Part shown: one piece after another, positions 43,263-61,863 of the stretch
Layout of the letters: each line of letters starts with the position of its first letter
Numbering within the stretch: position 1 is the first letter of the stretch
NCBI GenBank assembly: GCA_963764715.1
Contig: CAVXTP010000013.1
Coordinates: 96,001 to 160,000, forward strand
Direction of reading: 5' to 3'
DNA: 64,000 nucleotides
From: an uncultured Acidobacteriota bacterium
Lineage (GTDB): Bacteria; Acidobacteriota; Thermoanaerobaculia; UBA5066; Gp7-AA6
The notes under the pieces: generated by a model
Database searches by the model: none
Told to the model about the DNA's origin: nothing
The model's input: the letters and a program-made list of their open reading frames with translations, nothing else
Made by a program: the position numbers and the translations under genes

Positions 43263-43363
43263 GGAATGTCCTCCGTCGATTGTCGACACTTCTGGCTCAT
43301 TGTCGCGCGTTCTGGCCATGAAGTCAGCCGTCCATCCGGACAGGCAATGGGCCAGCGGCCGAC

Positions 43364-44517: not shown

Positions 44518-44521
<4 letters not shown>
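43394..44521 (-). CDS. M20 family metallopeptidase (glutamate carboxypeptidase-like)
   Basis: LLGHLDTVW, GPGSYDMKGG, EEVG, G.AAHAG, NVG...GG.RPNVVP, PTLDGLG..G.GAHA..E. Confidence 0.9.
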
Positions 44522-47964
<3,443 letters not shown>

Positions 47965-48062: not shown

Positions 48063-49649
48063 CTAGAGGACGCGCGTGTACTCGCTCTGGTCCTGCTTCC
48101 ACACCACGACGCCGCAGAACCGCTCGCCCTCCGGGCACACCGGCCGCACTCCCGCGTGGTGGCGCAGCGTGCACGGCGGCAGCAGCCAGGGCCCGATGCG
48201 CGGGTTGACGTCGCGGATCTGCAGGGCCTCGTCGAGGGACGCGCGCCAGATCTCCTCCTGCGCGTTGTAGCAGAGGCGCATCGCGAACTTGTGGTGGAGG
48301 TTCAGGAGGTCCGCCGACTCGGTGAAGCGGATCGCGACGGCGTTCGGCAGCAGGTAGGCCGCGAACTCGTCGGAGACGCCGCGCGAGCGGAGCTCGCCGA
48401 TCGCGCGCCAGGTCTCCTCCATCGTCTCGCGGTAGAGCGCCGCGGCCTCGGGCACGTCGTCGACGAGCATCGGGACGACGTAGTCGGGCTCCTCGGACAG
48501 GTAGGCCGGCAGGGCCGGGCGCGAGGCCGGCGTCATGCGGTGGCGCTGGTCCTGGCTGTCGGCCGTGTGCGAGAGCTTCTTGCGGAAGGTGTAGGACGGG
48601 TGGAAGAGCGCGCGCGAGAGCTTGTCGTGCGTCGTCAGCGTCAGCGTTTCGCCGAGGACGCGGTTCTTCGACGGATCGAGGACCATCCGGATCGCATCGT
48701 CGTCGGAGAGCGCGGCCCGGGGGACGCCGAGGATCTCGCGCACGGCCGAGGCGAGGATCTCCTCGTTGTTGGCCTTCCAGTCGACGAGGCGCGAGACGCG
48801 CGGCCCGAGCTCCGCGTCGAACTCTCGCCGGAACTCGCGGGACGCGCCGCGGACGCGCGGAAGCGCCCGGAACGCCGCGTACTCGGGCGTCTCCTCGAGC
48901 GGCAGCGGGTCCTGCAGGACGGTCGCGTAGAGCGGGTCGTGCCGGAGGACCTCCTCGACCATCTGCCCGACGATCTCCCGCTGCTCCGCCGGCGCGTCCA
49001 TGGTTTCGCAGAGGCGCCAGTACCGGAAGAGCGTCACGCCCGAGACCGTGTGGTACAGGTACGAGAACGTCGCGACCGGGAGCACGTACCGCGCGATCTC
49101 CTGCGCCCGCTTCTTGACCGCGCCCGAGAACCGCGTCCGCCCGTCTCCGCGCGTGCGGCCCGGGAAGAGACCGAAGTAGCGCTCGCCCGCCATCGGCGTC
49201 AGGAGCTCGGTCAGCCGGGCGTAGGCCTCCTGCTGGCGGCGCGCGGCCCGCTCGTAGATGTCCCGCTCGGGCGCGCCCATCGGGGGCACGGCGTAGTTGC
49301 CGCGGCTGACCTCGACGTAGCGCTGGGAGACCTGCTCGGAGTTGTAGAACGGGTGCGAGTGGAGAAACGTCCAGAGGAACTGGCGCGAGACGTTCTCCAG
49401 CGCGAACTGGAAGTGCGCGTGCTGGAAGGTCGTGTGGTGCCCGGCCTCGTAGATCGACTTCGCGATCGCGTCGCGCCGGTCGGGGCGCGCCGAGGCCTGG
49501 TCCTCGGTGACGATCCCCTTGGCCGAGTAGCACGTCCGGGCGGTCGCGACGACGTTCTCGTAGGCGCGGTCGAAGGCGTGGACGAGGCGGACCTTCGGCG
49601 GCGCGGAGGAGAAGGCAAAGCCGCTCTTGGGAAGGGGAAGGCTCGACAT
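48063..49649 (-). CDS. thyX: FAD-dependent thymidylate synthase, tandem two-domain form
   Basis: Domain 1 GHHTTFQH..F..VSR..SEQVSQRY..ARYVLP; domain 2 QDQRHR..AAYLLPN..RLCYNAQEEI; alternative start at 49661. Confidence 0.85.
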   Translation of the reverse strand: MSSLPLPKSGFAFSSAPPKVRLVHAFDRAYENVVATARTCYSAKGIVTEDQASARPDRRDAIAKSIYEAGHHTTFQHAHFQFALENVSRQFLWTFLHSHPFYNSEQVSQRYVEVSRGNYAVPPMGAPERDIYERAARRQQEAYARLTELLTPMAGERYFGLFPGRTRGDGRTRFSGAVKKRAQEIARYVLPVATFSYLYHTVSGVTLFRYWRLCETMDAPAEQREIVGQMVEEVLRHDPLYATVLQDPLPLEETPEYAAFRALPRVRGASREFRREFDAELGPRVSRLVDWKANNEEILASAVREILGVPRAALSDDDAIRMVLDPSKNRVLGETLTLTTHDKLSRALFHPSYTFRKKLSHTADSQDQRHRMTPASRPALPAYLSEEPDYVVPMLVDDVPEAAALYRETMEETWRAIGELRSRGVSDEFAAYLLPNAVAIRFTESADLLNLHHKFAMRLCYNAQEEIWRASLDEALQIRDVNPRIGPWLLPPCTLRHHAGVRPVCPEGERFCGVVVWKQDQSEYTRVL

Positions 49650-49699
49650 CGAATCTGCCATTCTAGCCCTCGCGCGAGGTCCGATAGCATCGGGTACGG

Positions 49700-50539
49700 A
49701 TGGACAGCCGGACCGACGCGGAGCTGCTCGAGGCCGCCCGGCGCGGCGACGCGGGGTCGCTCGAAGACCTCCTCGAGCGCCACCAGGCGCAGGTCTACCG
49801 CTTCGGCATGAAGATGTGCCGCGACCCGGAGGACGCCCGCGACGTCCTGCAGGACACGCTGCTCGCGATGGCGAGGGGCGTCCGCGACTTCCGCGGCGCG
49901 TCCTCGATCTCGACGTGGCTCTACACGATCGCCCGGAGCTTCTGCATCAAGAAGCGCCGGCGCAGCAAGTTCGCGCCGGAGCCGGAGCGTTCCCTCGAGA
50001 GCGACGCCTCGCCCGAAGCGGCGGACCTGCCGGATCCGGGCCGCACCCCCGACGAGGTCCTCGCGTCGAAGCAGGTGCACGACGCGCTGGAGCAGGCGAT
50101 CGGGGCCCTCGAGCCGATGTACCGGGAAGTCCTTCTGCTGCGGGACGTGGAGGGCCTGTCGGCGGCCGAGGTCGCCGAGGTCCTCGGCGTCGGCGTGCCG
50201 GCCGTCAAGAGCCGCCTGCACCGCGCCCGCCTGTCCGTGCGCGCGCACGTCGCGCCGCTCCTGGGGATCTCGCCGCCGGAGCCCGCGGCCGCCCCATCGA
50301 AGTCGTCCTGCCCGGACGTGCTCGAGCTCTTCTCCCGCCACCTCGAGGACGAGATCAGCGCGGATGTCTGTCTCGAGATGGAGCGCCACCTCGCCGGGTG
50401 CGCCCGTTGCCGCGCCACCTGCGATTCCCTGAAGCGCACGCTCGCCCTCTGCCGCACGAGCCCTTCGGTCCCCGTGCCGAAAGCCCTCCAGGATTCGGTC
50501 CGCGTCGCGGTCCGGAATTTCCTCGGGGCGCCGTCCTGA
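49700..50539 (+). CDS. ECF sigma factor fused to a C-terminal ZAS/zf-HC2 zinc-finger domain
   Basis: DARDVLQDT, STWLYTIA, EGLSAAEVAEVLG...VKSRLHRAR, then CPDVLELFSRHLEDEI...ERHLAGCARC (HxxxCxxC). Confidence 0.92.
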   Translation: MDSRTDAELLEAARRGDAGSLEDLLERHQAQVYRFGMKMCRDPEDARDVLQDTLLAMARGVRDFRGASSISTWLYTIARSFCIKKRRRSKFAPEPERSLESDASPEAADLPDPGRTPDEVLASKQVHDALEQAIGALEPMYREVLLLRDVEGLSAAEVAEVLGVGVPAVKSRLHRARLSVRAHVAPLLGISPPEPAAAPSKSSCPDVLELFSRHLEDEISADVCLEMERHLAGCARCRATCDSLKRTLALCRTSPSVPVPKALQDSVRVAVRNFLGAPS

Positions 50540-50566
50540 ACCCTTTTCGCGGCGGCCGGCTCTCAC
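50538..50566 (+). promoter_or_regulatory. Putative ECF promoter GAACCCTT-N12-GGCTCTCAC upstream of thioredoxin
   Basis: Copy 1 of 3, with 18 nt between GAAC and CTC. Confidence 0.7.
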
Positions 50567-50582
50567 CGGGCGTGGAGGGCCG

Positions 50583-50969
50583 ATGGCGACCGTACAGGTG
50601 ACGGAGGAGAGCTTCGAAGCGACGATCAAGTCGGGAATCGTGATTCTCGACTTCTGGGCCGGCTGGTGCGGGCCCTGCCACATGTTCGCCCCGGTCTTCG
50701 AGGCCGCCGCGGAGCGCCACCCGGACGTGGTCTTCGGCAAAGTCGACACCGAGGCCGAGGCGGGGCTGGCGGCCGCCTTCGACATCCGTGCGATCCCGAC
50801 GTTGATGGTGCTTCGCGACGGCGTCCTCCTCGCGTCCCAGCCCGGGGCGCTGCCCGCCTCGGGGCTCGACGCCCTCGTCGAGAAGGTGCGATCCCTCGAC
50901 ATGGACGAGGTGCGGCGGAGCATCGATGCCGCCGCGGCGGACGCGGCCCGCGGCGCGGAGAACGCCTGA
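50583..50969 (+). CDS. trxA: Thioredoxin
   Basis: DFWAGWCGPC, IRAIPTL. Confidence 0.92.
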   Translation: MATVQVTEESFEATIKSGIVILDFWAGWCGPCHMFAPVFEAAAERHPDVVFGKVDTEAEAGLAAAFDIRAIPTLMVLRDGVLLASQPGALPASGLDALVEKVRSLDMDEVRRSIDAAAADAARGAENA

Positions 50970-51163
50970 TGTGCCGGCGCGCGACCTGCCCGCGGTGCGG
51001 GCTCGCGACGTTCGCCGGCTGCGGCGCCCACGTCGAACAGGTTCTCGGAAACGTGCCGCCGGCGGAGCGGTGCCGGTGCGGCGGGGAGTCCCGGGACGAC
51101 GCGCAAGCCGCCGGGACGAGCCGTTCGCGAGGCTGGTTTTTCGGCCGGCGCGGAAAGGCGTAG
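50969..51163 (+). CDS. Small Cys-rich protein (64 aa)
   Basis: TGATG coupling to trx; MCRRATCPRCGLATFAGCGAHVEQVLGNVPPAERCRC. Confidence 0.85.
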   Translation: MCRRATCPRCGLATFAGCGAHVEQVLGNVPPAERCRCGGESRDDAQAAGTSRSRGWFFGRRGKA

Positions 51164-51169
51164 GCGATC

Positions 51170-51337
51170 ATGGACTCGTGGATCGAGCTCGCCGCTCTCC
51201 TCGTAGGCTGGATTCTTCTCCAGTACTGGATATTGCCCAGGCTCGGAATCGGGACCTGAGCGGTGCCGACGCCGCGCCGGTCGGCGCGGGGGAAGCACCG
51301 GGCGGACGCCGCCGATCGAAAGGACGATTGCCCCTGA
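51170..51337 (+). CDS. Small single-TM protein, candidate selenoprotein (29 aa to TGA; 55 aa with Sec readthrough)
   Basis: MDSWIELAALLVGWILLQYWILPRLGIGT-(TGA 51257)-AVPTPRRSARGKHRADAADRKDDCP; fills the operon gap; SECIS-like hairpin follows the TGA. Confidence 0.65.
51257..51300 (+). promoter_or_regulatory. Bacterial SECIS-like element
   Basis: TGA, lower stem CGGTGC/GCACCG, upper stem CCGCGCC/GGCGCGG, apical loop GGTC starting after a 19-nt spacer from the TGA. Confidence 0.6.
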
Positions 51338-51356
51338 CGGGTCCGGCCGAGGTCCC

Positions 51357-52097
51357 TTGATCGGCTGGATCCTCGGATTCGGCCTGCTCGCGAGCGTCGC
51401 CAGCGTCGGGCTCGCCGCCGTGATCCTCCTGCTGCCCGCCGCAACTCGCTCGACCCTCGTCACGACCCTCGTCAGCTACGCCGTCGGGACTCTGCTCGGA
51501 GCGGCGTTTCTGGGGCTTCTGCCCAACGCCCTCGCCCAGGCGGGCCACCGGCCGGTCCTGGCCGCGACGCTCGGCGGCATCCTCCTCTTCTTCGTGCTCG
51601 AGAAGGTCGTCCTGTGGCGGCACTGCCACGCCGGCGAGTGCGAGATCCACGGACGCCCGGCGGCTGCGCTGATCCTGGCGGGCGACGCGCTCCACAACTT
51701 CGTGGACGGCGTGGCGGTGGCCGCGGCCTTCGAGGTCTCCGTCCCGGTCGGCGTCGCGGCCGGGTTGGCGATCATCGCCCACGAGGTACCGCAGGAGCTG
51801 GGTGACTTCGCCGTCCTGCTGGAGGGAGGCTTCTCCCGGGTTCGCGCACTGATCTGGAACGGGTTGTCCAGCCTGACGACGCTGGCGGGAGCTCTGCTCG
51901 GGTACTTCTCGCTCGAGACCCTTCGTCCGGCGCTGCCGTTCGTGCTGGCCGTTTCCGCCGCGGGCTTCGTCTACGTCGCGGCCGCCGACCTCATCCCCTC
52001 CCTTCATCGAAGAGCCCGGGGCGCCGCCGGACTGGGACAGTTCGCGCTCGTCCTGGCCGGCGTCGCGACGATCGCCCTGCTGCACTCGGATCACTGA
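51357..52097 (+). CDS. ZIP family divalent metal transporter
   Basis: WRHCH, GDALHNFVDG, HEVPQELGDF; multiple TM helices; TTG start. Confidence 0.92.
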   Translation: MIGWILGFGLLASVASVGLAAVILLLPAATRSTLVTTLVSYAVGTLLGAAFLGLLPNALAQAGHRPVLAATLGGILLFFVLEKVVLWRHCHAGECEIHGRPAAALILAGDALHNFVDGVAVAAAFEVSVPVGVAAGLAIIAHEVPQELGDFAVLLEGGFSRVRALIWNGLSSLTTLAGALLGYFSLETLRPALPFVLAVSAAGFVYVAAADLIPSLHRRARGAAGLGQFALVLAGVATIALLHSDH

Positions 52098-52199
52098 GTC
52101 CGCCCCGCCGCGCGGAACGCATCGATCCCTTTCGGGAAGGCTCAGCCGCAGCCGTCCGAGAGGTTTCGCCGACGCCTCCCGGGGAGCGTCTCCGCGGGT

Positions 52200-52228
52200 G
52201 AACCCTTCGGGCCCGCCTCGGCTCTCAC
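52200..52228 (+). promoter_or_regulatory. Putative ECF promoter GAACCCTT-N12-GGCTCTCAC upstream of the OsmC gene
   Basis: Copy 2 of 3. Confidence 0.7.
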
Positions 52229-52374
52229 CCATCGGGCGCCGCGGCCGGAGCGGGGTCCCGAACAACCCGGAGGGGATGAAGATGCTCAACGTCGTCCCGC
52301 ACGCCGCTCGCCGGGGAGATTCGGGCTCGCCGCCGATCCCGACGCCAGGGCGGCCGAACTGAACGGGAGCACGC

Positions 52375-52881
52375 ATGTCCGAAATCCACAGCACCTACCC
52401 CTTCTCGATTCGATGGCAGGATGGCAAGCGCGGTCTGGCCAGCGCCCCGGATGGGCTCCCGGATCTCGAGATCGCCTCGCCGCCGCAGTTCGGCGGGCCG
52501 GGCGGCCGCTGGACGCCGGAGCACCTCTTCGTCGGCGCCGCGACGAGCTGCTGGTTGACCACGTTCCTCGCGATCGCCGAGCTGTCGAAGCTCGATTTCG
52601 TGGCGGTCGAAGCGGCGGGGGAGGGGTTTCTCGAGCGCGGCGACGACCGGCGCTTCTCGATCACGCGGATCGTTCTGCGCCCCCGCGTGACGGTGCGCCG
52701 CGAGGAGGACCGCGACCGGGCGCTGCGGATCGTCCGCAAGGCCGAAGAGTCCTGCCTCGTCGCCCGCTCCATGCGGACCGCGATCGCACTCGAGCCGGTG
52801 GTCTCGGTCGGCGAGGCCGGGGCGCGGGCCGCGGGCGCCGGCCCCTCGTCGGAGCCTCCCGCGATCTCCCCGCCGTCCTGA
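52375..52881 (+). CDS. OsmC/Ohr family peroxiredoxin
   Basis: PPQFGG..WTPEHLF.GA..SC, KAEESCLVARS (both catalytic Cys present). Confidence 0.9.
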   Translation: MSEIHSTYPFSIRWQDGKRGLASAPDGLPDLEIASPPQFGGPGGRWTPEHLFVGAATSCWLTTFLAIAELSKLDFVAVEAAGEGFLERGDDRRFSITRIVLRPRVTVRREEDRDRALRIVRKAEESCLVARSMRTAIALEPVVSVGEAGARAAGAGPSSEPPAISPPS

Positions 52882-52972
52882 GGGCGGCGATCCCTTCGTC
52901 CGCGCCGTCCGACCGCCCCGCCGTTCGGCGCGACGGGCCGTCGCCGCCGGGACGGGGGATACTGACTCCGCG

Positions 52973-53803
52973 ATGCTGACCTTCACGCTCGCCGTCGGGG
53001 CGGGCTCGCTCGTCGCGGGCTTCCTCGGCGCGCTCACGGGGCTGGGTGGGGGCGTCGTCGTCGTTCCGCTGCTGACGATCGCGTTCGGCGTCGACATCCG
53101 TTACGCGATCGGGGCGTCGCTGATCTCGGTGATCGCGACCTCCTCGGGCGCGGCCGCGGCCTACGTGAAGGAGGGGTTTTCGAACCTGCGGATCGGGATC
53201 TTTCTCGAGATCGCCACGACGACCGGGGCCCTGGCGGGCGCCGGACTGGCCTCGCGCACCTCGACCTCCGCGATCTCCGTCGCGTTCGGTCTCGTGTTGA
53301 TCGCGTCGGCGTTTCTCACGCTGCGCTCCCGTGGCGACCGGTCCGCGCCGGAAGCGCCGGGAGGATGGGGCCGGCGACTGCGCCTGAACGGCCTGGAGCC
53401 GACGGCGGCCGGACCGAGACCGTACGAGGCCCGCAACGTGCCGGCGGGGTTCGGCGTCATGTTCGTCGCGGGGGGTCTCTCCGGCCTGCTCGGAATCGGG
53501 TCAGGCGCGGTCAAGGTGCTCGCGTTGGACGGGGCGATGGGGCTGCCCTTCAAGGTCGCCACCACGACGTCCAACTTCATGATCGGAGTGACCGCCGCGG
53601 CCAGCGCCGGCGTCTACCTCAACCGCGGGTACATCGATCCCGGCATCGCGCTGCCGGTCATGCTGGGGGTCCTCGTGGGATCGCTCGCGGGCGCGCGCCT
53701 GCTGGCCCGGGCCGAAACCGCGCGGCTCCGGCTCGTCTTCGTCGTCGTGATCCTCGCCCTCGCGGTCGAGATGATCCGCAGCGGCATCACCGGGAGCATC
53801 TGA
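52973..53803 (+). CDS. TauE/SafE (TSUP) family sulfite/organosulfur exporter
   Basis: GALTGLGGG, SGLLGIGSG, KVATTTSNFMIGVTA; about 8 TM helices. Confidence 0.9.
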   Translation: MLTFTLAVGAGSLVAGFLGALTGLGGGVVVVPLLTIAFGVDIRYAIGASLISVIATSSGAAAAYVKEGFSNLRIGIFLEIATTTGALAGAGLASRTSTSAISVAFGLVLIASAFLTLRSRGDRSAPEAPGGWGRRLRLNGLEPTAAGPRPYEARNVPAGFGVMFVAGGLSGLLGIGSGAVKVLALDGAMGLPFKVATTTSNFMIGVTAAASAGVYLNRGYIDPGIALPVMLGVLVGSLAGARLLARAETARLRLVFVVVILALAVEMIRSGITGSI

Positions 53804-54186
53804 TGGCCACCCGCGCGTGGACCGACCGGAAAGTCGAGCAGCTCGTCGGCAACCTCCTGCGGGCGGGCGTCGTCCTCGCGGGCGCCGTCGTTCTCGCGGG
53901 CGGCCTGATCGAGATCTCGCGGCACGGCTCCGCGCCGCCCGCCTACCGCGTCTTCCACGGCGAGCCCGCGGACCTGCGGGGCGTCGGAGGGATCCTGCGC
54001 GACGCGTCCTCGCTCGAGGGCCGGGGGCTGATCCAGCTCGGGCTGCTGCTCCTTCTCGCGACCCCCGTCGCGCGGGTCGCCCTGCTGATGTTCGCCTTCG
54101 CCCGGCAGGGCGACCGGCTGTACGTCGGAGTCACCCTGGTCGTTCTGGCCGTCCTGCTCTACAGCCTCCTCGCCGCCGGGCGCTGA
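53803..54186 (+). CDS. DUF1634 membrane protein
   Basis: TGATG coupling to TauE; GNLLRAGV, IQLGLLLLLATPVARV, DRLYV. Confidence 0.87.
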   Translation: MATRAWTDRKVEQLVGNLLRAGVVLAGAVVLAGGLIEISRHGSAPPAYRVFHGEPADLRGVGGILRDASSLEGRGLIQLGLLLLLATPVARVALLMFAFARQGDRLYVGVTLVVLAVLLYSLLAAGR

Positions 54187-54218
54187 CCGGCCCCCCGGGG
54201 GGCCGCGAGCCCTCCCCC

Positions 54219-54247
54219 GAACCCTTTTTCGTCGGGCGGGCTCATAC
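54219..54247 (+). promoter_or_regulatory. Putative ECF promoter GAACCCTT-N12-GGCTCATAC upstream of the DUF2892-TolC-RND operon
   Basis: Copy 3 of 3; preceded by the GGCCCCCCGGGGGGCC palindrome at 54189-54204. Confidence 0.7.
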
Positions 54248-54262
54248 GGGCTGGAGGGCCGC

Positions 54263-54460
54263 ATGCAAACCAACGAAGCCGACTGGGATCGCGGGGTCCG
54301 GGTCGCGGTCGGGCTCGGTCTCCTCTCGATCACGGTCGTCTGGCCGCACACCCTGTGGGGCCTGGCAGGGTTTGCGCCGATTGCGACCGGCCTCTGGGGC
54401 TTTTGCCCCCTCTATCGCTTGAGCGGCCTGAGCACCTGTCCCGCGCAGGGGCGGTGCTGA
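54263..54460 (+). CDS. DUF2892 (YgaP-like) membrane protein
   Basis: M..N....DR..R...G, TG..GFCPLY...G.STC; RBS GGAGGG. Confidence 0.9.
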   Translation: MQTNEADWDRGVRVAVGLGLLSITVVWPHTLWGLAGFAPIATGLWGFCPLYRLSGLSTCPAQGRC

Positions 54461-54482
54461 CGGCCACGGGACGGATTCGCCC

Positions 54483-55775
54483 ATGAAACTCGCACTGCTT
54501 CTCGCCGTTCTCGCGGCCCCGGAGCCGCTCACCCTCCAGCAGGCCGCGTCCCTGGCCGCGGGCGGCGCGCCCGTGGTCGAGCGCGCGAAGGCCGAGACCG
54601 ACCGGGCGCGGGCCTCGGAGTCCTCGGCGAAGTCGGCCCTGGGCCCGACGCTCTTCGGCGACGTCGGCTTCCTCACGTCCAACAACCCCGTGACCGTCTT
54701 CTCGCTCGCGCTGGAGCAGCAGCGCTTCTCGGCGCAGGAATTCTTCCTCTCCGACCCCAACGATCCGCCGTTCACCCAGGACTGGAACGCGGCCGTGGCC
54801 GCCGCCTGGGCGGTCGACCTCTTCGGCTCGGCGCGGGCCGCCGCGCGCGCGGCGGGAAGCGCGGCCGAGGCGGCCGAGCGCGCCGCTCGGCGGACCGGAG
54901 ACGGGGCGGCGCTGGAGGCGATCGCCGCCTTCGTCGAGGCGCGGCGCGCCGAGGACACGCTGGCGATCCTGGCGGAGCGGCAGTCGGACGCGGACCGGGA
55001 CGAGGCGCTGGCCCGCGCGCTCTACGAAGAGGGCGTCGCGACGTCGGCCGATCCCGCGCGGGCCCTCGCCGTCGCCGCCGAGGTCCGCGCCGACACCGCG
55101 GCGTTTCGCGCCGCCGCGTCGACCGCGCGCGCGACTCTCGCGGGCCTGATCGGCGAGGAGGCCGCCGCGAGGCCGCTCGCGCCGCTCCCGGAGCCGACGT
55201 CCGTCGACGCGCCTCCCTCGGGCACGCGCGACGACATCGCCGCGGCCGAGCTCTCGCTCGAGTCCGCGAAGCAGGCGGCCCGCTCGGCGGATGCGTCCCG
55301 GTGGCCGTCGCTCGTCGTGAGCGGGCGATGGGAATTTCACTCGCCGACCGCGGGCGGCCGGTACGGCGATTCCGGCACGGCCTTCGCCGGGGTCCGGGTC
55401 CCGATCTTCGAGTCCGGCGCCGTGACCGCGCGCGTGGCCGAGGCACGGGCGTCGGCGCGGGCGGCCGAGGCCGCGCTCTCCGAGCGCCGGCGCGCGGCGC
55501 AGAGCGAGACCGTCTCGGCGCGGGCGCGCGCGGAAGCGGCGGCCTCGCGTCTGGTCTCGTTCGAGGACGCGCGGACGGCGGCCGCCCGCGCGCGTGAGAT
55601 CCAGCAAGCCCGATACGAGGAGGGGGCCGCGCGCCTCTCGGACCTGCTGGAGGCCCGCTCGGCGGAGCTGCGCGCGCGGATGGGCGCCGTGGGCGCCGCG
55701 GCCGATCGCGTGCTCGCCGAAGCCAACCTGCGCATGGCCCTGGGCCTGGCGCCCGAGGGGGAGGGAGCGCGATGA
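54483..55775 (+). CDS. TolC family outer-membrane efflux protein
   Basis: Signal peptide, two OEP halves (LYEEGVAT / RYEEGAARLSDLL, WPSL, VPIFESG). Confidence 0.87.
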   Translation: MKLALLLAVLAAPEPLTLQQAASLAAGGAPVVERAKAETDRARASESSAKSALGPTLFGDVGFLTSNNPVTVFSLALEQQRFSAQEFFLSDPNDPPFTQDWNAAVAAAWAVDLFGSARAAARAAGSAAEAAERAARRTGDGAALEAIAAFVEARRAEDTLAILAERQSDADRDEALARALYEEGVATSADPARALAVAAEVRADTAAFRAAASTARATLAGLIGEEAAARPLAPLPEPTSVDAPPSGTRDDIAAAELSLESAKQAARSADASRWPSLVVSGRWEFHSPTAGGRYGDSGTAFAGVRVPIFESGAVTARVAEARASARAAEAALSERRRAAQSETVSARARAEAAASRLVSFEDARTAAARAREIQQARYEEGAARLSDLLEARSAELRARMGAVGAAADRVLAEANLRMALGLAPEGEGAR

Positions 55776-56824
55776 AGCGAATTCCGGGTCTCGTGGCGCT
55801 GGCGGTCCTCGCCTTCGCCGGCTGCGCGAAGAAGCCTGCCCCCGAAGCGGCCTCCGGCGCGAACCGGAAGCTCGCGACGGCGAAAGTCGAGAGGAGCGAT
55901 GCCGCGGCGACCGTCGAGGTCGACGGAACCGTCGTGGGAGTGACCGAAGCGATCCTCTCGAGCCGCCTCGCAGCGCCGGTCGTCGAGGTGCTCGCGGTTC
56001 CCGGCCAGACCGTCCGCGCCGGCGCGGTCCTCGTCCGATTGGCGGACCGCGAATCCGAAAGCGCGCTCGAGGGCGCCCGCGCCGCGGTGGCGGCCGCACG
56101 CTCGACGTCGGAGATCGCGACCCGCAATCGGATGCGGTTCGAGCGGCTCGAGGGGCGCGGCGCGGCCGCCGCGGTCGAGATCGAGCGGACCCGGCAGGAG
56201 GAGTCCTCGGCGGTCTCGGCCCTGGCGCTCGCGCAGGCCGCGCTGGCGCGCGCCGAGACGGACCGGGAGCAGTCGGTGCTCGTCGCGCCGTTCGACGCGG
56301 TCGTCGTCGAGAAGATGGTTTCCGTCGGAGACCTCACGGCCCCTGGGCGGCCCCTCGTCCGGCTCTCCTCGGCGAAGGGGCGGCGCGTCGAGGCGGCGCC
56401 GGGCGAAGAAGCGGCCTCACGGCTCGCCGTCGGCGACGTGGTGCCCGTCGCCCTCGGCGATCGGGTCGTCGAGGGCCGGATCGTGGAAATCGTGGGCGCG
56501 GTCGATCCGGAAACGCGCCGCCGCCTCGTCCGCGTGGGCCTTCCCGCGGACGTCGATCCGCCGGTCGGCACCTTCGTGCGCCTGCGCTTCCCGGGGCCGG
56601 CCGCGTCGAGGCTCCTGGTGCCCGCGCGCGCGATCGCGGCCCGGGGCGGCCTCGAGATCGCCTGGGCGGTCGGGCGGGACGACCGGGTGTCTCTGCGGTA
56701 CGTCCGCACCGGCGGGCCCGCCGGCGCCGGCCTGGTGGAGGTCCGGTCCGGGCTCGAAGCGGGAGAGCGGGTCGTGCTCGATCCGCCGGCGGACCTGGCG
56801 GCCGGGACGCGGGCGGTCTCGTGA
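55772..56824 (+). CDS. RND efflux periplasmic adaptor (MFP), lipoprotein
   Basis: Lipobox LAFAGC; GQTVRAG, APFDAVV, VDPETR, SGLEAGERVV. Confidence 0.9.
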   Translation: MKRIPGLVALAVLAFAGCAKKPAPEAASGANRKLATAKVERSDAAATVEVDGTVVGVTEAILSSRLAAPVVEVLAVPGQTVRAGAVLVRLADRESESALEGARAAVAAARSTSEIATRNRMRFERLEGRGAAAAVEIERTRQEESSAVSALALAQAALARAETDREQSVLVAPFDAVVVEKMVSVGDLTAPGRPLVRLSSAKGRRVEAAPGEEAASRLAVGDVVPVALGDRVVEGRIVEIVGAVDPETRRRLVRVGLPADVDPPVGTFVRLRFPGPAASRLLVPARAIAARGGLEIAWAVGRDDRVSLRYVRTGGPAGAGLVEVRSGLEAGERVVLDPPADLAAGTRAVS

Positions 56825-59800
56825 CGCTCGACCCGCGGGTGCGGCTCGTGCAGGAGCGCGAACGCCTCGGCCTCGCCGGACGCCTCGCCTCCGCGTTCAT
56901 CGAGTCGAAGCTGACGCCTTTGCTCGTCTTTTTCGCCCTGGCGCTCGGAGCCCTCGCCATCGCCGTGACGCCGCGCGAAGAAGAGCCCCAGATCAAGGTC
57001 CCGATGGTCGACGTCTTCGCGTCGCTTCCGGGCCGCGGCTCGGTCGAGGTCGAGCGGGAGATCTCGTCTCCCCTCGAGAAAGCCTTCTGGTCCATCCCCG
57101 GGGTCGAGTACGTCTACTCGACCTCGTCGCCGGGCTCGGCGTTCGTGGTCGTGCGCTTTCGCGTGGGGGAGGACCCCGACCGCGCCTTGGTGCGGGTCCG
57201 CTCCAAGATCGACGCGCTCGCCGACGCCTGGCCGCGGGACGTGCCGCCGCCGGTCGTCAAGCCCCGTTCGATCGACGACGTGCCGATCTGGGCCCTGACG
57301 TTCTGGAGCCCGACGCAGGATCCGGCGACGCTCCGGCAGATCGCGGCGGAGGTCGAGAACGAGATCAAGAGCATCCCGGAAGTCTCGGACACCGCCCTCA
57401 TCGGCGGCTTGCGGCGCGAGTTCCGGGTGGAGCTCGACCCGGCGCGGCTCGCGGCGCGCGGGCTCGCGGCCGGCCCGGTCATCGCGGCGATCGAGGCCGG
57501 CAACCGCCGCACCGTGGCGGGCGAGATGGTCGCCTCCGACCGGGGCGTCGTGGTCGAGGCCGGCGGCTTCCTCGAGTCCGCGAGCGAGCTCGGCTCGGTC
57601 GTCGTCGCCGAGCGCGGCGGACGCCCGGTGCGGCTCTCCGACGTCGCGACCGTCGTCGACGGACCGGAGCGCCCCGCGACCTACGTGACGCACGGGGAGC
57701 CCGGCCGTGCCGGGCGCTTCGCCGCGGTCACGCTCGCCGTCAGCAAGCGGCGCGGCGCCAACGCGATCTCGGTCGTGCACGCGATCGAGCGCCGGCTCGA
57801 CGCCGTGGAGCCGCGCCTTCTCGCCGCGGACGTGCGCACGACGGTGACGCGCGACTACGGCGAGACCTCTTCGGAGAAGTCGAACGAGCTGCTCAAGCAC
57901 ATGGCCCTCGCGACCCTGTCGGTCGCGCTGCTCATGGCGCTCGCGCTGGGCCGGCGGGAGGCGGGCGTGGTGCTGCTCGCGGTGCCGGTCACGCTGGCGC
58001 TCACGCTCTTCGTCTTCATGCTCTTCGGCTACACGCTCAACCGGATCACGCTCTTCGCCCTCATCTTCTCGATCGGCATCCTCGTCGACGACGCGATCGT
58101 CGTCGTCGAGAACATCGTCCGCCACCTCCGGCTGCCGTCCGCGCACGGACGCCCGCTCGCCCGGATCGCGGTGGAGGCGACCGACGAGGTCGGCAACCCC
58201 ACGATCCTCGCCACGTTCGCGGTCATCGCGGCGATCGTGCCGATGGGTTTCGTCGGCGGGCTGATGGGACCGTACATGCGCCCGATCCCGGTCGGGGCTT
58301 CGGCGGCCATGCTCTTCTCGCTGCTCGTGGCCTTCGCGATCTCGCCCTGGGCGGCGCGCCGGCTGTTTCGCGGGACGCCCGCCGGGGCGGCCGGCCACGG
58401 CGAGGGCGAGCGCAGCCGGCTCGCGCAGCTCTACCGCCGCGCGATGACGCCGCTCGTCTCGGACGGCGGCCGGCGCTCGCGCGCGATCTTCTTCGGCGTC
58501 ATCGCGGTGCTGCTCCTCGGAGCAATGGCGCTCGTGCCGCTGGGCGTCGTGACCGTGAAAATGCTGCCCTTCGACAACAAGAACGAGTTCCAGGTCGTGG
58601 TGGACCTTCCCGACGGAACGACGCTCGAGACCACGCACCGCGTGCTCTCGGAGATGGCGGACGCCCTCGCGCCGCTGCCGGAAGTGACGGGAACCGAGGT
58701 CTACGCCGGCACGGCCGCGCCCTACAACTTCAACGGCCTCGTGCGGCACTACTTCCTGCGCTCGGCGCCGCACCAGGGAGACGTCCAGGTGTCGCTGGCG
58801 CCGAAGGGGAAGCGCTCCCGCTCCTCGCACGCCATCGCCCGCGCCGCCCGCGGGCTCCTCGAGCCGATCGCCCGGCGCTACGACGCCCGCGTCAAGGTCG
58901 CCGAGGTGCCGCCGGGTCCCCCGGTGCTGCAGACCCTCGTCGCCGAGATCTACGGCCCGGACGACGCGGGCCGCCGGGAGGTGGCGCGGCAGGTGCGCGA
59001 CGTGTTCCGGAAGACCGAGGGAGTCGTCGACGTCGACTGGTACCTGGAGACCCCGCGCGACAAGGAGGTCTACCGGCTCGACCGCGAGAAGGCGGGCCTC
59101 TCGGGGATCCGCGAGTCCGACGTCGCGGCGACCCTGCGCCTGGCGCTCTCGTCCGATGCGGCCGGCGAGATCCACCTTCCCGGGATCCGCGAGCGGATTC
59201 CGCTGCGGTTCACGCTGCCCGAGGAGCGCCGCCACGACCTCTCCGCGCTCGGCGCGCTCTCGGTCGCGGACGCGTCGGGCCGCCTCGTCCCGCTCTCCGA
59301 GATCGGGCGCTTCGAGCGCGTGCCGGCCGACACCTCGATCTACCACAAGAACTTGAAGCCGGTCGTGTACGTCACCGCCGACGTCGCCGGGCGCCGCGAG
59401 GCCCCGGTCTACGCGATCGGGGCGCTCGAGAAGGGCATCGCGTCGATCCCGGTGCCGGGCGGGTACCGCATCCAGACGCGCACGGCGACCGCGCCGTTCG
59501 ACACGGCGCGCTTCGGGCTCAAGTGGGACGGCGAGTGGCACGTGACCTACGAGGTCTTCCGCGACCTCGGCCTCGCCTTCGCGGCGGTCCTCGTCCTGAT
59601 CTACGTCCTCGTCGTCGGCTGGTTCAAGAGCTTTACGGTGCCGCTCGTCATCATGGCGCCGATCCCGTTGACGCTCGTCGGGATCCTCCCGGCGCACGGT
59701 CTCTTCGGCGTGTTCTTCACCGCGACCTCGATGATCGGCTTCATCGCCGGCGCCGGCATCATCGTGCGCAACTCGATCATCCTCGTCGACTTCATCGAGC

Positions 59801-60093
59801 TGCGCCGCCGGGAGGGCATGGAGCTCTCCGAAGCGGTGCTCGACGCGGGGGAGGTGCGCTTCCGCCCGATGCTCCTGACGGCGGCCGCGGTCGTCGTGGG
59901 CTCCGCGGTGATGCTGCTCGATCCGATCTTCCAGGGACTCGCGGTCTCGATGATGGCGGGGGAGGTGGCGGCGACGCTCCTGTCGCGCGCCGCCGTGCCG
60001 GTCCTCTATTACATGCTCAAACGCGCGGAGGAGAAGCGGGCGCACCCCTCGCCGGCCACCTCGTCCGTCGCGACGGAAAGGAGCCTCGCATGA
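56821..60093 (+). CDS. RND efflux permease (AcrB/CzcA superfamily)
   Basis: GTGA coupling; PREEEPQI, IGILVDDAIVVVENI, GIIVRNSIILVDFI, RFRPMLLT. Confidence 0.93.
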   Translation: MTLDPRVRLVQERERLGLAGRLASAFIESKLTPLLVFFALALGALAIAVTPREEEPQIKVPMVDVFASLPGRGSVEVEREISSPLEKAFWSIPGVEYVYSTSSPGSAFVVVRFRVGEDPDRALVRVRSKIDALADAWPRDVPPPVVKPRSIDDVPIWALTFWSPTQDPATLRQIAAEVENEIKSIPEVSDTALIGGLRREFRVELDPARLAARGLAAGPVIAAIEAGNRRTVAGEMVASDRGVVVEAGGFLESASELGSVVVAERGGRPVRLSDVATVVDGPERPATYVTHGEPGRAGRFAAVTLAVSKRRGANAISVVHAIERRLDAVEPRLLAADVRTTVTRDYGETSSEKSNELLKHMALATLSVALLMALALGRREAGVVLLAVPVTLALTLFVFMLFGYTLNRITLFALIFSIGILVDDAIVVVENIVRHLRLPSAHGRPLARIAVEATDEVGNPTILATFAVIAAIVPMGFVGGLMGPYMRPIPVGASAAMLFSLLVAFAISPWAARRLFRGTPAGAAGHGEGERSRLAQLYRRAMTPLVSDGGRRSRAIFFGVIAVLLLGAMALVPLGVVTVKMLPFDNKNEFQVVVDLPDGTTLETTHRVLSEMADALAPLPEVTGTEVYAGTAAPYNFNGLVRHYFLRSAPHQGDVQVSLAPKGKRSRSSHAIARAARGLLEPIARRYDARVKVAEVPPGPPVLQTLVAEIYGPDDAGRREVARQVRDVFRKTEGVVDVDWYLETPRDKEVYRLDREKAGLSGIRESDVAATLRLALSSDAAGEIHLPGIRERIPLRFTLPEERRHDLSALGALSVADASGRLVPLSEIGRFERVPADTSIYHKNLKPVVYVTADVAGRREAPVYAIGALEKGIASIPVPGGYRIQTRTATAPFDTARFGLKWDGEWHVTYEVFRDLGLAFAAVLVLIYVLVVGWFKSFTVPLVIMAPIPLTLVGILPAHGLFGVFFTATSMIGFIAGAGIIVRNSIILVDFIELRRREGMELSEAVLDAGEVRFRPMLLTAAAVVVGSAVMLLDPIFQGLAVSMMAGEVAATLLSRAAVPVLYYMLKRAEEKRAHPSPATSSVATERSLA

Positions 60094-60299
60094 GACGGTC
60101 CGTGGACGACTGGCTGCGCGGGATCGCGGGAACCTTCGTTCTCGCGTCGCTCGCCCTCGGGTGGTTCGTCCACCCGGGGTTCTTTCTCTTCACCGCGTTC
60201 GTCGGCGCCAACCTGCTGCAATCCGCTTTCACCGGGACGTGTCCGATGATGTGGCTCTTGAAGCGGCTCCGCGTTGGCGCGGCCGCGGCGCAGCCGTGA
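60090..60299 (+). CDS. Second DUF2892 (YgaP-like) membrane protein
   Basis: ATGA coupling; LR.IAGTFVL.SL.L...VHP...FTAFVGANLLQSAFTGTCPM. Confidence 0.88.
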   Translation: MRRSVDDWLRGIAGTFVLASLALGWFVHPGFFLFTAFVGANLLQSAFTGTCPMMWLLKRLRVGAAAAQP

Positions 60300-60583
60300 A
60301 GCTGCTGCTCGCCGTCGTTGCCCGGGAGGCGCGCGACGACGCGGAGGCCGCGCTCGAGGCGGCCGCGGGCGCGGGTTTCACGGAAATACCGGGCGTTTAC
60401 GGCGAAGGGAGCACCGGACCTCGCTTTGGCTCCCGCCAGGCGCCCGGCGTTTCGGACCTCGTCTTCGCCGCGATTGCCGACGAGAAGCTTCCGGCCGCCC
60501 GGGAGGCGCTCGCGACGGCCGGTGCGCGGCACGGGAAGCCCATTCGCGCGTTCGTGCTCCCCGTCGAGGAAGCCTGGAGCTGA
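60296..60583 (+). CDS. P-II-like small protein of the RND-associated type
   Basis: GTGA coupling; GFTEIPGVYGEGSTGPRFGS...PG, IRAFVLPVE. Confidence 0.75.
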   Translation: MKLLLAVVAREARDDAEAALEAAAGAGFTEIPGVYGEGSTGPRFGSRQAPGVSDLVFAAIADEKLPAAREALATAGARHGKPIRAFVLPVEEAWS

Positions 60584-60596: not shown

Positions 60597-61772
60597 CTAA
60601 CCCCAGCGCGGCGGCTCGTCGAGGTTGATGCCGAGCGCCGTCTTGGCCACGACCTCGTGCGTCAGGGCGGAGTTGGCCGGGTGGAAGCGCCCCGCGCGGG
60701 CGTCGCGGAAGAGCCTCTCGAGCTCGTTGCGCTTGAACATCCCGGCGCCGCCCGAGAGCTCCATGGCGGTGTCGACGACCTTCCAGACGCCCTCGGCCGT
60801 GCGGTACTTCGTCGCCATGATCTTCGACGGCCAGAGCGCGCCGTGGCCGATCCCCGCGGACCACTCCCCGGTCGTCCGGTCGATCAGCGGCTCGAGCGCT
60901 TCGAGCTCCATCACCATCTCGGCCACGCCGTGCTGCATGGCCGGGTGATGGGCCATGGAGCCCGAGACCGCGAGCGAGGTCCGCTTCTTCAGCGACTCGA
61001 CGGTCAGGTCGAGCACGCGGCGGCCGAGCGCGTAGTAAATGTGGGCGAAACCGATCAGGGCCCACGCGAAGATCGACAGCACAAAGACGTCGATGCCGGC
61101 CGCGCCCGCCGGCACGACCCGGCTGATGCGGTCGTCGGGGATGAAGACGCCCTCGAGAATCGTGTCGTCGCTGCGGGTCGCGCGCATCCCGAGGACGTCC
61201 CAGGTCGGCTCGATGCGGTAGCCCTCTGCGTCGCGCTTGAGGAAGGCGTGCACGATTTTCGGCGCCTTCGGATCGCTCGCATCCATTCCATGGAGGCCGA
61301 GGAGGGTCCAGACGGGCGTGAGGCTGCCGAAGGCCTTGTGGCCGGTGAAGCGGTAGCCGCCGGCGACGCGTTCCGCGCGCGTCGTGGAGAGCAGCACGGG
61401 GAGGTCGTGGCCGAGCTCGGCGTGGCCGGCGGCGAAGACCGCGCCCTGCCCGGCGGCTTCGAGGATCCAGTCGCAGGAGGAGTCGCCCGATTGCCGGACC
61501 TGCGACGCCACGCCGCACCAGTAGGTGTGCATGTTCGTGCCGAGCGCGGTCGCCGGCGCCCAGTAGGCGAGGCGCCGGGTCTCGCGCATGCAGTCGGCGA
61601 AGGAGAGCCCGAGGCCTCCGAGCTCGCGCGGGACGGCCATCTTCAGGTAGCCGGCGCGGCGCAGGTCCTCGAAGTCCTCGCTGAAGAACCGGTTCTCGCG
61701 GTCGTACGCGGGCGCCCGGCCGTGGAAGGTCCGCAGCATCTCATCCGACAGGATCGGCCGGGAGTCGCTCAT
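60597..61772 (-). CDS. Acyl-CoA dehydrogenase-fold flavoprotein (hydroxylase / DszC-SfnB-like)
   Basis: VPRELGGLG, MH, FTGHKAFGS, WDVLGMRATRSDD, ERLFRDARAGRFHP; RBS GAAGGAG. Confidence 0.85.
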   Translation of the reverse strand: MSDSRPILSDEMLRTFHGRAPAYDRENRFFSEDFEDLRRAGYLKMAVPRELGGLGLSFADCMRETRRLAYWAPATALGTNMHTYWCGVASQVRQSGDSSCDWILEAAGQGAVFAAGHAELGHDLPVLLSTTRAERVAGGYRFTGHKAFGSLTPVWTLLGLHGMDASDPKAPKIVHAFLKRDAEGYRIEPTWDVLGMRATRSDDTILEGVFIPDDRISRVVPAGAAGIDVFVLSIFAWALIGFAHIYYALGRRVLDLTVESLKKRTSLAVSGSMAHHPAMQHGVAEMVMELEALEPLIDRTTGEWSAGIGHGALWPSKIMATKYRTAEGVWKVVDTAMELSGGAGMFKRNELERLFRDARAGRFHPANSALTHEVVAKTALGINLDEPPRWG

Positions 61773-61863
61773 GGCGAAGGCTCCTTCCTCGAAGATCCCG
61801 GGATATATGACGATGCGCCCGCAGATACAAGGGGCCTGGGGACCCCGATAGAATAGGCGGCCC

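Follow-up and report, generated by a model that had tools for sequence, protein, structure and literature searches.

We analyzed a 64,000-nt stretch of DNA from an uncultured Acidobacteriota bacterium (contig CAVXTP010000013.1; the whole stretch is called the window below) and focused on its segment 49700-60583, in which a sigma factor fused to a zinc-binding anti-sigma (ZAS) domain is followed by small Cys-containing proteins, transporters and a tripartite RND efflux pump. At a G+C content of ~70% the raw lists of open reading frames (ORFs) of the window are crowded by spurious frames, and for this reason the gene model was set by a third-position GC frame plot and direct translation, followed by Pfam and NCBIfam scans. 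Applying this procedure we found 14 genes, all on the plus strand, and they agree with the 14 co-oriented genes listed in an earlier reading of the letters alone (the sequence-only reading):

49700-50539, plus strand: extracytoplasmic function (ECF) sigma factor (regions 2 and 4) with a soluble ZAS domain, here called sigma-ZAS; 279 aa; PF04542, PF08281, PF13490.
50583-50969, plus strand: thioredoxin with a WCGPC motif; 128 aa; PF00085 at 85.9 bits, TIGR01068 at 96.0 against a cut-off of 96.8.
50969-51163, plus strand: Cys-mini, a Cys-rich protein of an unnamed family; 64 aa; its start overlaps the thioredoxin stop; no family match.
51170-51337, plus strand: ORF with an in-frame TGA, a candidate selenoprotein; no Pfam or NCBIfam match.
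51357-52097, plus strand: ZIP-family metal transporter; 246 aa, TTG start; PF02535 at 113.5 bits.
52375-52881, plus strand: OsmC/Ohr-type thiol peroxidase; 168 aa with two Cys; PF02566 at 53.5 bits.
52973-53803, plus strand: TauE/SafE-family anion exporter; 276 aa; PF01925 at 164.3 bits.
53803-54186, plus strand: DUF1634 membrane protein; 127 aa; its start overlaps the tauE stop; PF07843 at 100.8 bits.
54263-54460, plus strand: DUF2892a, a YgaP-like transmembrane protein with the canonical CP...TC...C pattern; 65 aa; PF11127 at 65.4 bits.
54483-55775, plus strand: OEP, a TolC-like outer-membrane efflux protein; 430 aa; PF02321.
55772-56824, plus strand: MFP, the periplasmic adaptor; 350 aa; TIGR01730 at 151 against a cut-off of 94.9.
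56821-60093, plus strand: RND permease of a distinct subfamily; 1090 aa, no Cys, VDDAIVVVEN in transmembrane helix 4 (TM4); PF00873 at 514 bits.
60090-60299, plus strand: DUF2892b, the RND-linked subtype with G-x-NL-x-QS-xx-T-xx-C; 69 aa; PF11127 at 41.3 bits.
60296-60583, plus strand: P-II-fold protein; 95 aa; assigned by a predicted-structure match.

The thioredoxin, ZIP, OsmC, TauE, DUF1634, OEP and MFP products each score over the respective Pfam gathering score, and both DUF2892 proteins exceed theirs (25.3 bits). At six junctions the genes overlap by 1 or 4 nt (thioredoxin/Cys-mini, tauE/DUF1634, OEP/MFP, MFP/RND, RND/DUF2892b and DUF2892b/P-II), which bears out the translational coupling proposed before. 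Apart from the WCGPC site of the thioredoxin, Cys residues were observed in Cys-mini (seven, six of them conserved), DUF2892a (three), DUF2892b (one) and OsmC (two), and the ZIP protein carries the loop sequence HCHAGECEIH; DUF1634, the P-II-like protein of the window and the RND permease contain no Cys at all. The block is bordered by a divergent thyX (48063-49661, minus strand) on one side and by a convergent acyl-CoA dehydrogenase gene (60597-61865, minus strand), followed by iscS, on the other.

In the gaps between these genes we observed a promoter-like motif, GAACCCTT-N12-GGCTC-NN-AC, which has three exact matches in the 64 kb, all on the plus strand, all intergenic and standing 5' of the thioredoxin, osmC and DUF2892a genes:

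P1, 50538-50566, plus strand: exact match; its first bases overlap the sigma stop codon; 17 nt 5' of the thioredoxin ATG.
P2, 52200-52228, plus strand: exact match; ~150 nt 5' of osmC.
P3, 54219-54247, plus strand: exact match; 16 nt 5' of the DUF2892a ATG.

With 16 specified bases and up to one mismatch allowed, chance would give only 0.01 matches, and three matches were reached in 0 of 100 shuffled sequences. A shorter version of the motif with two mismatches allowed gave only three scattered extra matches, where about six matches in all are expected by chance. Downstream of P1 and P3, GGAGG and a start codon follow within ~20 nt. The motif is shaped like an ECF promoter: AAC is part of its -35 block, and ~16 nt separate this block from a short -10 block. 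No sigma-70-type promoter was found in the segment. A scan of 185,579 species genomes with the RND permease gave at least 608 relatives, from which 79 loci (L001-L079) were kept. The motif was found in one of them, L004, with two copies, and in none of the other 78. In L004 the P1 equivalent (5956-5980) has two spacer bases changed and the P3 equivalent (7372-7396) a spacer that is different throughout; L004 lacks both osmC and P2. As the -35 and -10 blocks are kept in L004 while the spacers differ, we regard this pattern as a footprint of conserved blocks. Since the motif precedes the thioredoxin, osmC and DUF2892a genes, the 13 genes downstream of the sigma gene split into three putative units: the first with thioredoxin, Cys-mini, the TGA-containing micro-protein and ZIP, the second with OsmC, TauE and DUF1634, and the third with DUF2892a, OEP, MFP, RND, DUF2892b and the P-II-like protein. 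These observations support the reading of the three copies as putative ECF regulon promoters that tie the three transcription units together.

Between P2 and osmC there is also a short ORF (MKMLNVV...GRPN, 52277-52362, plus strand) with GGAGG just 5' of it. It ends in a TGA that shares the osmC reading frame, four codons ahead of the osmC ATG, and the third-position GC in its frame is raised (0.78-0.83); the stretch is present in no relative. The ORF could be a leader peptide.

The first gene of the segment encodes the presumed regulator. Regions 2 and 4 of its sigma part are well supported (PF04542, 58 bits; PF08281, 62 bits; TIGR02937, 98.9 against a cut-off of 42.9), and the zf-HC2 domain scores 27.4 against a cut-off of 22.2 (PF13490). 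The ligand set C204-x25-H230-x3-C234-x2-C237 is invariant in 20 of 20 aligned homologues, and the same holds for C224, C241 and C251 in the ZAS domain and for C40 and C82 in the sigma part. We take the C-x25-H-x3-C-x2-C spacing to be that of the RsrA ligands; the sigma-ZAS fusion suspected from the letters thus has a full RsrA-type ligand set and, in addition, three more invariant Cys in the ZAS domain. The family is large: more than 120 clusters at 71% identity or above, with a length of ~277 aa and nearly all with zf-HC2, the named members belonging to Myxococcota, Bradymonadia and Betaproteobacteria. A tblastn search on plasmids gave no sigma-ZAS match at an E-value of 1e-30 or better. SigR-RsrA of Streptomyces coelicolor, whose regulatory logic with thioredoxin is summarised in the supplement of PMC7826278, and SigH-RshA of Mycobacterium tuberculosis likewise combine an ECF sigma factor with a soluble ZAS protein (C...H-x3-C-x2-C plus extra Cys). 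As in these systems, the thioredoxin gene of the window stands directly under a putative sigma-dependent promoter, from which the same re-reduction feedback would follow. Unlike in these systems, a single polypeptide combines sigma and anti-sigma, the sigma gene has no motif copy 5' of it for autoregulation, and a tripartite RND pump, TauE, ZIP and two micro-proteins of unnamed families belong to the proposed regulon.

For one element of the combination of which the sequence-only reading knew no description, the fusion of a sigma factor with a soluble ZAS, there is a published record: in ECF270 subgroup 2 the soluble ZAS is fused to sigma in 60% of the members (supplement of PMC7826278), and this is the only described ECF group of the kind. 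The taxa given there for the subgroup overlap the Myxococcota relatives of the window protein. For subgroup 2 the same supplement states neither a conserved context nor a conserved promoter, whereas for the window we propose a motif and a three-unit regulon; the match with the window protein is one of architecture only. In the review PMC8999054, ECF270 is given among the untested groups, and soluble ZAS sensors are described as responding to several oxidants. CorE and CorE2 of Myxococcus xanthus (ECF238/ECF44) also lack a separate anti-sigma factor and carry a C-terminal Cys-rich extension as an on-board sensor, through which CorE2 is activated by Cd/Zn according to PMC7826278. The CorE extension comprises ~20 residues and is not a ZAS domain, while the window protein has a complete zf-HC2 domain of ~75 residues.

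Two small proteins encoded behind the thioredoxin belong to unnamed families. For Cys-mini we found 187 homologues, none with a Pfam domain, in which M1, C10, C18, H21, C35 and C37 do not vary and C2 and C7 hardly do. AlphaFold gave a low-confidence model (pLDDT 61.8), and a search of the ESM Atlas returned only unnamed clusters. Five Cys-mini matches and five sigma-ZAS matches have longest contigs of equal size (7885, 6309, 4803, 2027 and 1664), and on this ground there are hints that the two travel as a pair. The second protein would be a membrane-anchored selenoprotein: one hydrophobic helix is followed by LPRLGIGT, the TGA (51257-51259) and AVPTPRRSAR...DDCP. In L004 we observed the same TGA codon in the same frame, a tail of 25 codons and a terminal Cys-Pro-stop; 15 of the 25 residues after the TGA are identical, with the consensus LPRLG(I/V)xT-[TGA]-AVPxPRRSAR...C-P, and the GTG of the next L004 gene overlaps the distal stop of the ORF, not the TGA. 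When 1.84 billion representatives were searched exhaustively with HMMER, 14 matches came up, of which 13 are true relatives; a word-index search for the micro-protein gave no candidate. At the TGA position the 13 relatives have C (five), W (three), G (two), R (one) or S (one), and one ends there; the peptide after it (AVPxPRRSAR) is kept in the database relatives that have a residue at that position. Because gene callers print W or G for TGA under tables 4/25, the W and G relatives probably carry TGA as well.

Directly 3' of this codon a hairpin can be drawn:

51261-51300, plus strand: hairpin 3' of the TGA; stem CCGCGCC/GGCGCGG at 51272-51278/51283-51289, GGUC loop at 51279-51282.

The PRRSAR codons form the 7-bp GC stem, and the GGUC cap occupies positions +23 to +26, counted from the U of UGA. 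The upper stem and the loop are identical in L004, with flanks that differ. In loop and distance the hairpin presumably resembles the selenocysteine insertion sequence of E. coli fdhF. Its folding energy is no better than that of shuffled sequences in this GC-rich DNA (z -1.71 in the window and +0.82 in L004, neither significant). Rfam gave nothing at gathering thresholds in the whole window and, around the TGA at E-values up to 10, only chance matches to microRNAs and snoRNAs; ARAGORN found no tRNA in the window, and neither sel genes nor a tRNA-Sec were found within the 64 kb. The conserved TGA, the conserved frame downstream of it, the apparent Cys homologues and the GGUC-capped hairpin nevertheless make a true selenoprotein fairly probable in our judgement, and with the TGA kept in L004 and the apparent Cys homologues the candidate named in the sequence-only reading gains weight. 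We also considered the micro-protein as a truncated DUF2892 and rejected this, the DUF2892 profile giving 1.9 bits. One of its relatives, P0249, is an ORF of 198 aa whose N-terminal part is LMW-PTP/ArsC-like (CVRNAGRS) and whose C-terminal part is related to the micro-protein, with Ser at the selenocysteine position and a terminal Cys. Either a gene fusion or a frameshift between two neighbours would account for this ORF.

Next, we compared the segment with its closest relatives, L004 (RND 90% identical to that of the window) and L001-L003 (80-81%); by these best matches the window belongs to an acidobacterium of Thermoanaerobaculia type. The backbone of thyX, OEP-MFP-RND-DUF2892b and acyl-CoA dehydrogenase-iscS is present in all four genomes, except that L001 gave no acyl-CoA dehydrogenase match. 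In L001-L003 the whole stretch from the sigma gene to DUF2892a is missing, and a divergent ArsR/SmtB-type regulator stands there instead (65-67% identical to one another). L004 keeps sigma-ZAS, thioredoxin, Cys-mini, the TGA ORF, P3 and DUF2892a, the last being found in the window and L004 only, and the window region 51340-54217 with ZIP, osmC, tauE and DUF1634 corresponds to ~600 nt. This shorter stretch of L004 encodes a 192-aa protein (6757-7335, plus strand) with an N-terminal hydrophobic, signal-peptide-like stretch, a C-x4-R motif (VCTTGNR) and a weak, sub-threshold likeness to DUF442/BLH_phosphatase and TIGR01244 sulfurtransferase domains. The P-II-like gene is absent from L002 and L004 and present in L001. 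Since the frames of the pump genes seem disrupted in L004, presence and absence in this genome were judged on nucleotide alignments. In L004 7662-13480, OEP and MFP form one frame of 780 aa and RND and DUF2892b one of 1159 aa, and the tblastn match of the RND is split; these merged frames are probably assembly indel errors, the alternative being real fusions.

The segment is therefore best described as a mosaic whose chromosomal site, flanked by thyX and acyl-CoA dehydrogenase/iscS, is fixed. It is composed of (A) the conserved module of the pump, (B) the sigma-ZAS module, which has taken the place of an ArsR-type regulator, and (C) insertions specific to the window, parts B and C carrying the same motif as the pump. 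It is not the self-contained, co-conserved island that had been proposed: the module of sigma-ZAS, thioredoxin, Cys-mini and Sec candidate accompanies the RND in one of the 79 relatives (L004) and is lacking in the other 78, and the P-II-like gene comes and goes. ZIP, OsmC, TauE and DUF1634, which had been counted as members of the island, occur together in the window and in no relative, and ZIP is absent from L001-L004.

The conserved part of this mosaic is the pump. The RND permease lies under every NCBIfam subfamily cut-off, with scores of 440 against 1250 for RND_permease_2 (multidrug), 286 against 940 for TIGR00915 (HAE1) and 281 against 701 for TIGR00914 (CusA/CzcA); only the superfamily model PF00873 is reached. 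Against chains of solved structure it gave ~191-233 bits over the best 60 listed, including MdtB, AcrB, CmeB and ZneA, and by these scores its distance to structurally known drug pumps appears about the same as that to metal pumps. Clustering with characterised drug pumps, which the sequence-only reading had named beforehand as the outcome that would speak against a dedicated pump, was not seen, the permease falling outside every curated subfamily. Within its own family it is tightly conserved: in 66 full-length relatives, drawn from many phyla, conservation reaches at least 90% at 268 positions, the Asp-Asp pair of TM4 being among them.

For the genes that directly follow the RND we counted 73 loci with at least 700 nt 3' of it, using profiles built from the loci themselves and, for DUF2892, from domain envelopes. 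In 41 loci a DUF2892 gene follows on the same strand, in 31 a P-II-like gene, in 17 both, in 55 either and in 18 neither; among the latter, a DUF2892 gene lies upstream in six and 2 kb downstream in one. An alignment of 45 sequences of the RND-linked DUF2892 shows a single invariant Cys, and both DUF2892 proteins of the window are free-standing (65-69 aa), not fused to a rhodanese as in YgaP. The 95-aa protein stays under the P-II cut-off (PF00543, 23.7 against 25 bits) and under that of PG0541 (NF045581, 30.4 against 45), and an NCBIfam scan of three of its relatives from other phyla gave no match. Its AlphaFold model (pLDDT 79.5, from an alignment of 30 sequences, with a disordered loop at 25-52) shows a ferredoxin-like beta-alpha-beta fold in which a long loop connects the first helix to the strand that follows. 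As all PDB matches listed for this model are PII/GlnK structures (TM-scores of 0.57-0.68), the designation P-II-like holds at the level of the predicted fold. Thus OEP, MFP, RND and DUF2892, with or without the P-II-fold protein, form a core that is old and widely conserved across phyla. The closest parallels are GlnK-AmtB and other P-II-fold regulators of transporters, and the small partner protein AcrZ of AcrB: in the window, a small P-II-fold protein and a small two-helix membrane protein are encoded right behind the transporter gene and translationally coupled to it. Unlike GlnK, the window protein fails the P-II and PG0541 cut-offs and is dispensable in close relatives.

Six green sulfur bacterial loci within L032-L053 deviate in their adaptor, as the gene between OEP and RND (cluster c13) encodes only 132-165 aa; these ORFs match the C-terminal, membrane-proximal part of MFP models and correspond to a much shortened adaptor lipoprotein. 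The P-II-like proteins of the same loci have a Cys-x-Cys in the long loop (RGCNCE or RGCSCE).

In order to characterize the surroundings of the pump we called and clustered the ORFs of the 79 loci and compared 58 cluster representatives, two ORFs of L001/L004 and 126 nearby singletons with Pfam, and part of the neighbour ORFs with NCBIfam. Rhodanese genes occur in nine loci from at least five phyla (L006, L008, L009, L012, L025, L058, L059, L070 and L078); three of these are YgaP-like rhodanese-DUF2892 fusions divergent from the pump (L006, L008 and L009), and one is an ArsR-rhodanese fusion. SQR-like flavoproteins were observed in four loci (the one that was scanned is a type III SQR, 647 bits), DsrE_2 in four and DsrC/TusE in three, and a metallo-beta-lactamase with sub-threshold likeness to glyoxalase II and Blh follows the pump in 10. 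In nine Chlorobi loci a CsoR-family repressor stands directly 5' of OEP; it has Cys...Asn-x3-Cys and lacks the copper-ligand His, which we take to be the pattern of a CstR-type persulfide sensor. Of Trx-fold proteins, Pfam showed a DsbA-like one in L037, and tblastn gave matches to the window thioredoxin in L004, L014 and L061. ECF sigma factors lie near the pump in at least five loci. Those of L015, L017 and L018 (Armatimonadota/Chthonomonadales) are unfused, comprise ~207-219 aa and stand 3' of RND-DUF2892, directly downstream in L017 and L018 and ~3 kb further in L015; in L006 and L008 the sigma gene follows the RND on the opposite strand. The link between an ECF sigma factor and this pump thus recurs outside the lineage of the window. 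A survey of this kind had been proposed as a check of the thiol/persulfide module: sulfur-handling genes do often adjoin the relatives of the pump, and the combination of the window is not conserved as one module.

From these data we lean towards the explanation that the segment is a lineage-specific thiol-stress regulon under a sigma/anti-sigma switch that consists of one polypeptide. The mechanism that we propose is modelled on SigR-RsrA and SigH-RshA. In the resting state the ZAS domain, loaded with zinc, would fold back on sigma regions 2 and 4 and block them. Thiol-reactive stress (disulfide stress, persulfide or polysulfide, possibly a thiophilic metalloid) would modify the ZAS Cys residues, zinc would be released and the sigma part set free, and RNA polymerase would then read P1, P2 and P3. 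Of the products, thioredoxin would re-reduce the sensor, a negative feedback as in SigR-RsrA, OsmC would remove peroxides, TauE-DUF1634 would export an oxidised sulfur anion, and the RND system would expel the offending species or a conjugate of it. It is speculation that the pump has the RND-linked DUF2892, with its single invariant Cys, as a small partner in the inner membrane and the P-II-fold protein as a cytoplasmic regulator. Any role for ZIP in the system, such as the return of zinc to the sensor, is equally speculative, and so is a transfer of cargo from the mini-proteins to the pump.

Reactive sulfur species are the most likely class of stressor, although this is the weakest step of the proposal; we favour them because of the link between DUF2892 and rhodanese, the sulfide response of ygaVP, the H2S induction in Azospira and the sulfur-type neighbours. 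According to PMC9774250, ygaVP of Escherichia coli, which encodes an ArsR-type regulator and a rhodanese-DUF2892 protein, is derepressed by sulfide. In ygaVP and the BigR/SqrR and CstR systems, as in the window, a DUF2892 domain stands under a Cys-based sensor, there of sulfide or persulfide. The cst operon also has a TauE-type exporter in common with the window. The sister genomes of the window and the Chlorobi relatives have an ArsR-type and a CsoR-family (Cys/Asn/Cys) regulator, respectively, 5' of the pump. Unlike in the ygaVP, BigR and CstR systems, the sensor of the window is a sigma factor and not a repressor, and DUF2892 is free-standing and not fused to a rhodanese; an RND pump is not part of these systems as described, and the window lacks SQR, persulfide dioxygenase and rhodanese. 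PMC5358917 describes an RND-SQR-MFP operon of Azospira suillum (Dsui_3440-3443: hypothetical protein, RND, SQR, MFP) that is induced by H2S, as is the DUF2892 gene Dsui_0042 (~10-fold), which is unlinked to the pump there. Like the window, this operon has an RND/MFP pair, SQR-linked in Azospira, the two permeases being compared by description only; the authors read the pumps as metal-sulfide exporters.

Several observations weigh against the explanation given above. Deletion of the Azospira RND-SQR operon left the H2S oxidation rate unchanged, as stated in PMC5358917. The redox sensitivity of a ZAS domain is not readable from its sequence, and the promoter assignment likewise comes from the letters alone; no motif copy was found 5' of the sigma gene, and the -10 block GGCTC-NN-AC differs from the common ECF type with CGT. 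The RND family has no conserved Cys in the 66 sequences, and its TM4 motif presumably resembles that of drug and amphiphile pumps. The link of the sigma module with the pump, found in one close relative of 79, could be recent and would then say little on the ancestral role of the pump. Neighbours of the pump also include CDF, HMA, AhpC, SAM methyltransferases, FeoB/Fur, arsenic-type genes and many unrelated housekeeping genes, and the neighbour counts are suggestive and not a test, as the loci are phylogenetically clustered and only this RND subfamily was counted.

A further-reaching version of the thiol-stress regulon seems to us unlikely and is put forward tentatively. RND-DUF2892, with or without the P-II-fold protein, would be a dedicated exporter of reactive sulfur species or of thiophilic metalloid-thiol adducts; the invariant DUF2892 Cys would carry the cargo within the membrane and pass it on to the pump, which the P-II-fold protein would gate from the cytoplasmic side. 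The pump would then have been captured by a sigma-ZAS sensor whose operon adds new families of a Sec/Cys micro-protein and a mini-protein with six Cys and one His, both serviced by thioredoxin. We know of no RND pump to which reactive sulfur species or metalloid-thiol adducts have been assigned as a substrate class.

The segment might instead be a system for a thiophilic metal or metalloid (As(III)/Sb(III), Cu(I), Zn/Cd, Se/Te), in which the ZAS domain senses the element directly, in the manner of CorE, and the pump and ZIP handle the element or its thiol conjugates; we judge this to be improbable. The activation of CorE2 by Cd/Zn via its Cys-rich extension (PMC7826278) is a precedent for such sensing, and ZIP falls in the first unit of the window. 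ArsR-type regulators were observed in 11 loci, 5' of the pump in L001-L003 and near it in eight further loci (L012, L016, L023, L026, L045, L050, L062 and L077), several of them with C-terminal C-x3-C or CC motifs. Omnitrophota loci contain Acr3-like SBF, LMW-PTP/ArsC-like and ArsP genes in addition to FeoB/Fur; CDF, HMA and TerC genes, SAM methyltransferases (four loci) and, in L033, a ZIP gene 5' of the RND operon also lie near the pump, and P0249 joins an ArsC-like N-terminal part to the relative of the TGA micro-protein in one ORF. However, the permease is not of the CusA/CzcA type (281 bits against 701) and has the conserved Asp-Asp pair in TM4, which we take to be typical of amphiphile pumps, and we know of no RND arsenite pump. 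The arsenic-type neighbours are limited to one phylum, ZIP proteins are usually importers and not exporters, and rhodanese, SQR, DsrE and CsoR-family (C-N-C) neighbours are more widespread.

We are similarly doubtful about a general regulon for oxidative, peroxide or electrophile stress, in which the pump would be a broad-spectrum amphiphile exporter, the sulfur-type neighbours incidental, and DUF2892 and the P-II-like protein generic accessories in the style of AcrZ. Thioredoxin and OsmC are classic oxidative-stress genes. OsmC adjoins the RND in L008 and L078 as well, and a DsbA-like protein in L037 (by Pfam), a DsbD-type membrane protein in L077 and AhpC and Usp genes are found near pump relatives. 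The TM4 Asp-Asp motif is conserved, the best NCBIfam match of the permease is a multidrug RND model, and the response of soluble ZAS sensors to several oxidants (PMC8999054) fits a general regulon too. Still, the permease, with 440 bits against 1250, is far under the multidrug cut-off and belongs to a separate, tightly conserved subfamily, DUF2892 is known from elsewhere as the membrane part of a rhodanese encoded in a sulfide-responsive operon (PMC9774250), and TauE-DUF1634 and the rhodanese, SQR and DsrE neighbours are left unexplained.

That the genes are under no common control and merely adjacent, with a motif that is no promoter and a TGA that is a plain stop codon beside a regulatory or terminator hairpin, is very hard to believe: the modules are separable in related genomes, the hairpin energy is no better than in shuffles, Rfam gave no match and no Sec machinery was seen in the 64 kb, but three exact copies of a motif with 16 specified bases, each in the gap 5' of a gene start at 0.01 expected, the retention of the P1 and P3 motifs in L004 despite the spacer changes, the six overlapping junctions, the conservation of the peptide AVPxPRRSAR in relatives with a residue at the TGA position and the overlap of the next GTG of L004 with the distal stop, not the TGA, all argue against it.

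With respect to novelty, tripartite RND pumps are already known, and so are ECF regulons under ZAS control in which thioredoxin provides feedback. Our literature search on DUF2892, RND, sulfide/persulfide, SQR and Chlorobaculum tepidum found no description of the module; only the Azospira paper (PMC5358917) touches it. As far as the searched literature goes, new points are a promoter and a regulon proposed for the family of sigma-ZAS fusions, an RND subfamily defined by DUF2892 and P-II-fold partners and by thiol- or sulfur-sensing regulators, the exchange of an ArsR-type regulator for a sigma factor at one site, and two unnamed small-protein families, one of them probably a selenoprotein. The type of stress circuit is ordinary, its parts are largely unstudied. 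For the very large and highly conserved sigma-ZAS family, with more than 120 clusters across phyla, the locus offers a testable promoter motif and regulon; the partners of the pump and its recurrent neighbours (rhodanese, SQR, DsrE, CsoR-/ArsR-type sensors) make the export of reactive sulfur species by an RND pump testable, and the replacement of an ArsR-type repressor by sigma-ZAS at a fixed site is a clean natural case of regulator replacement.

Outside the segment, the bordering thyX is unusually long (532 aa) and contains two Thy1 stretches, which gives it the look of a tandem or fused FAD-dependent thymidylate synthase; it is kept at 80-94% in L001-L004. Further 5', the stretches 23289-26342 (plus strand), 44518-47964 (minus strand) and 32560-43319 (minus strand) encode two large Ser/Thr kinases, one of them with TPR repeats, a DUF11-repeat protein of 1743 aa and a subtilase-like protein of 875 aa, which have no relation to the segment as far as seen.

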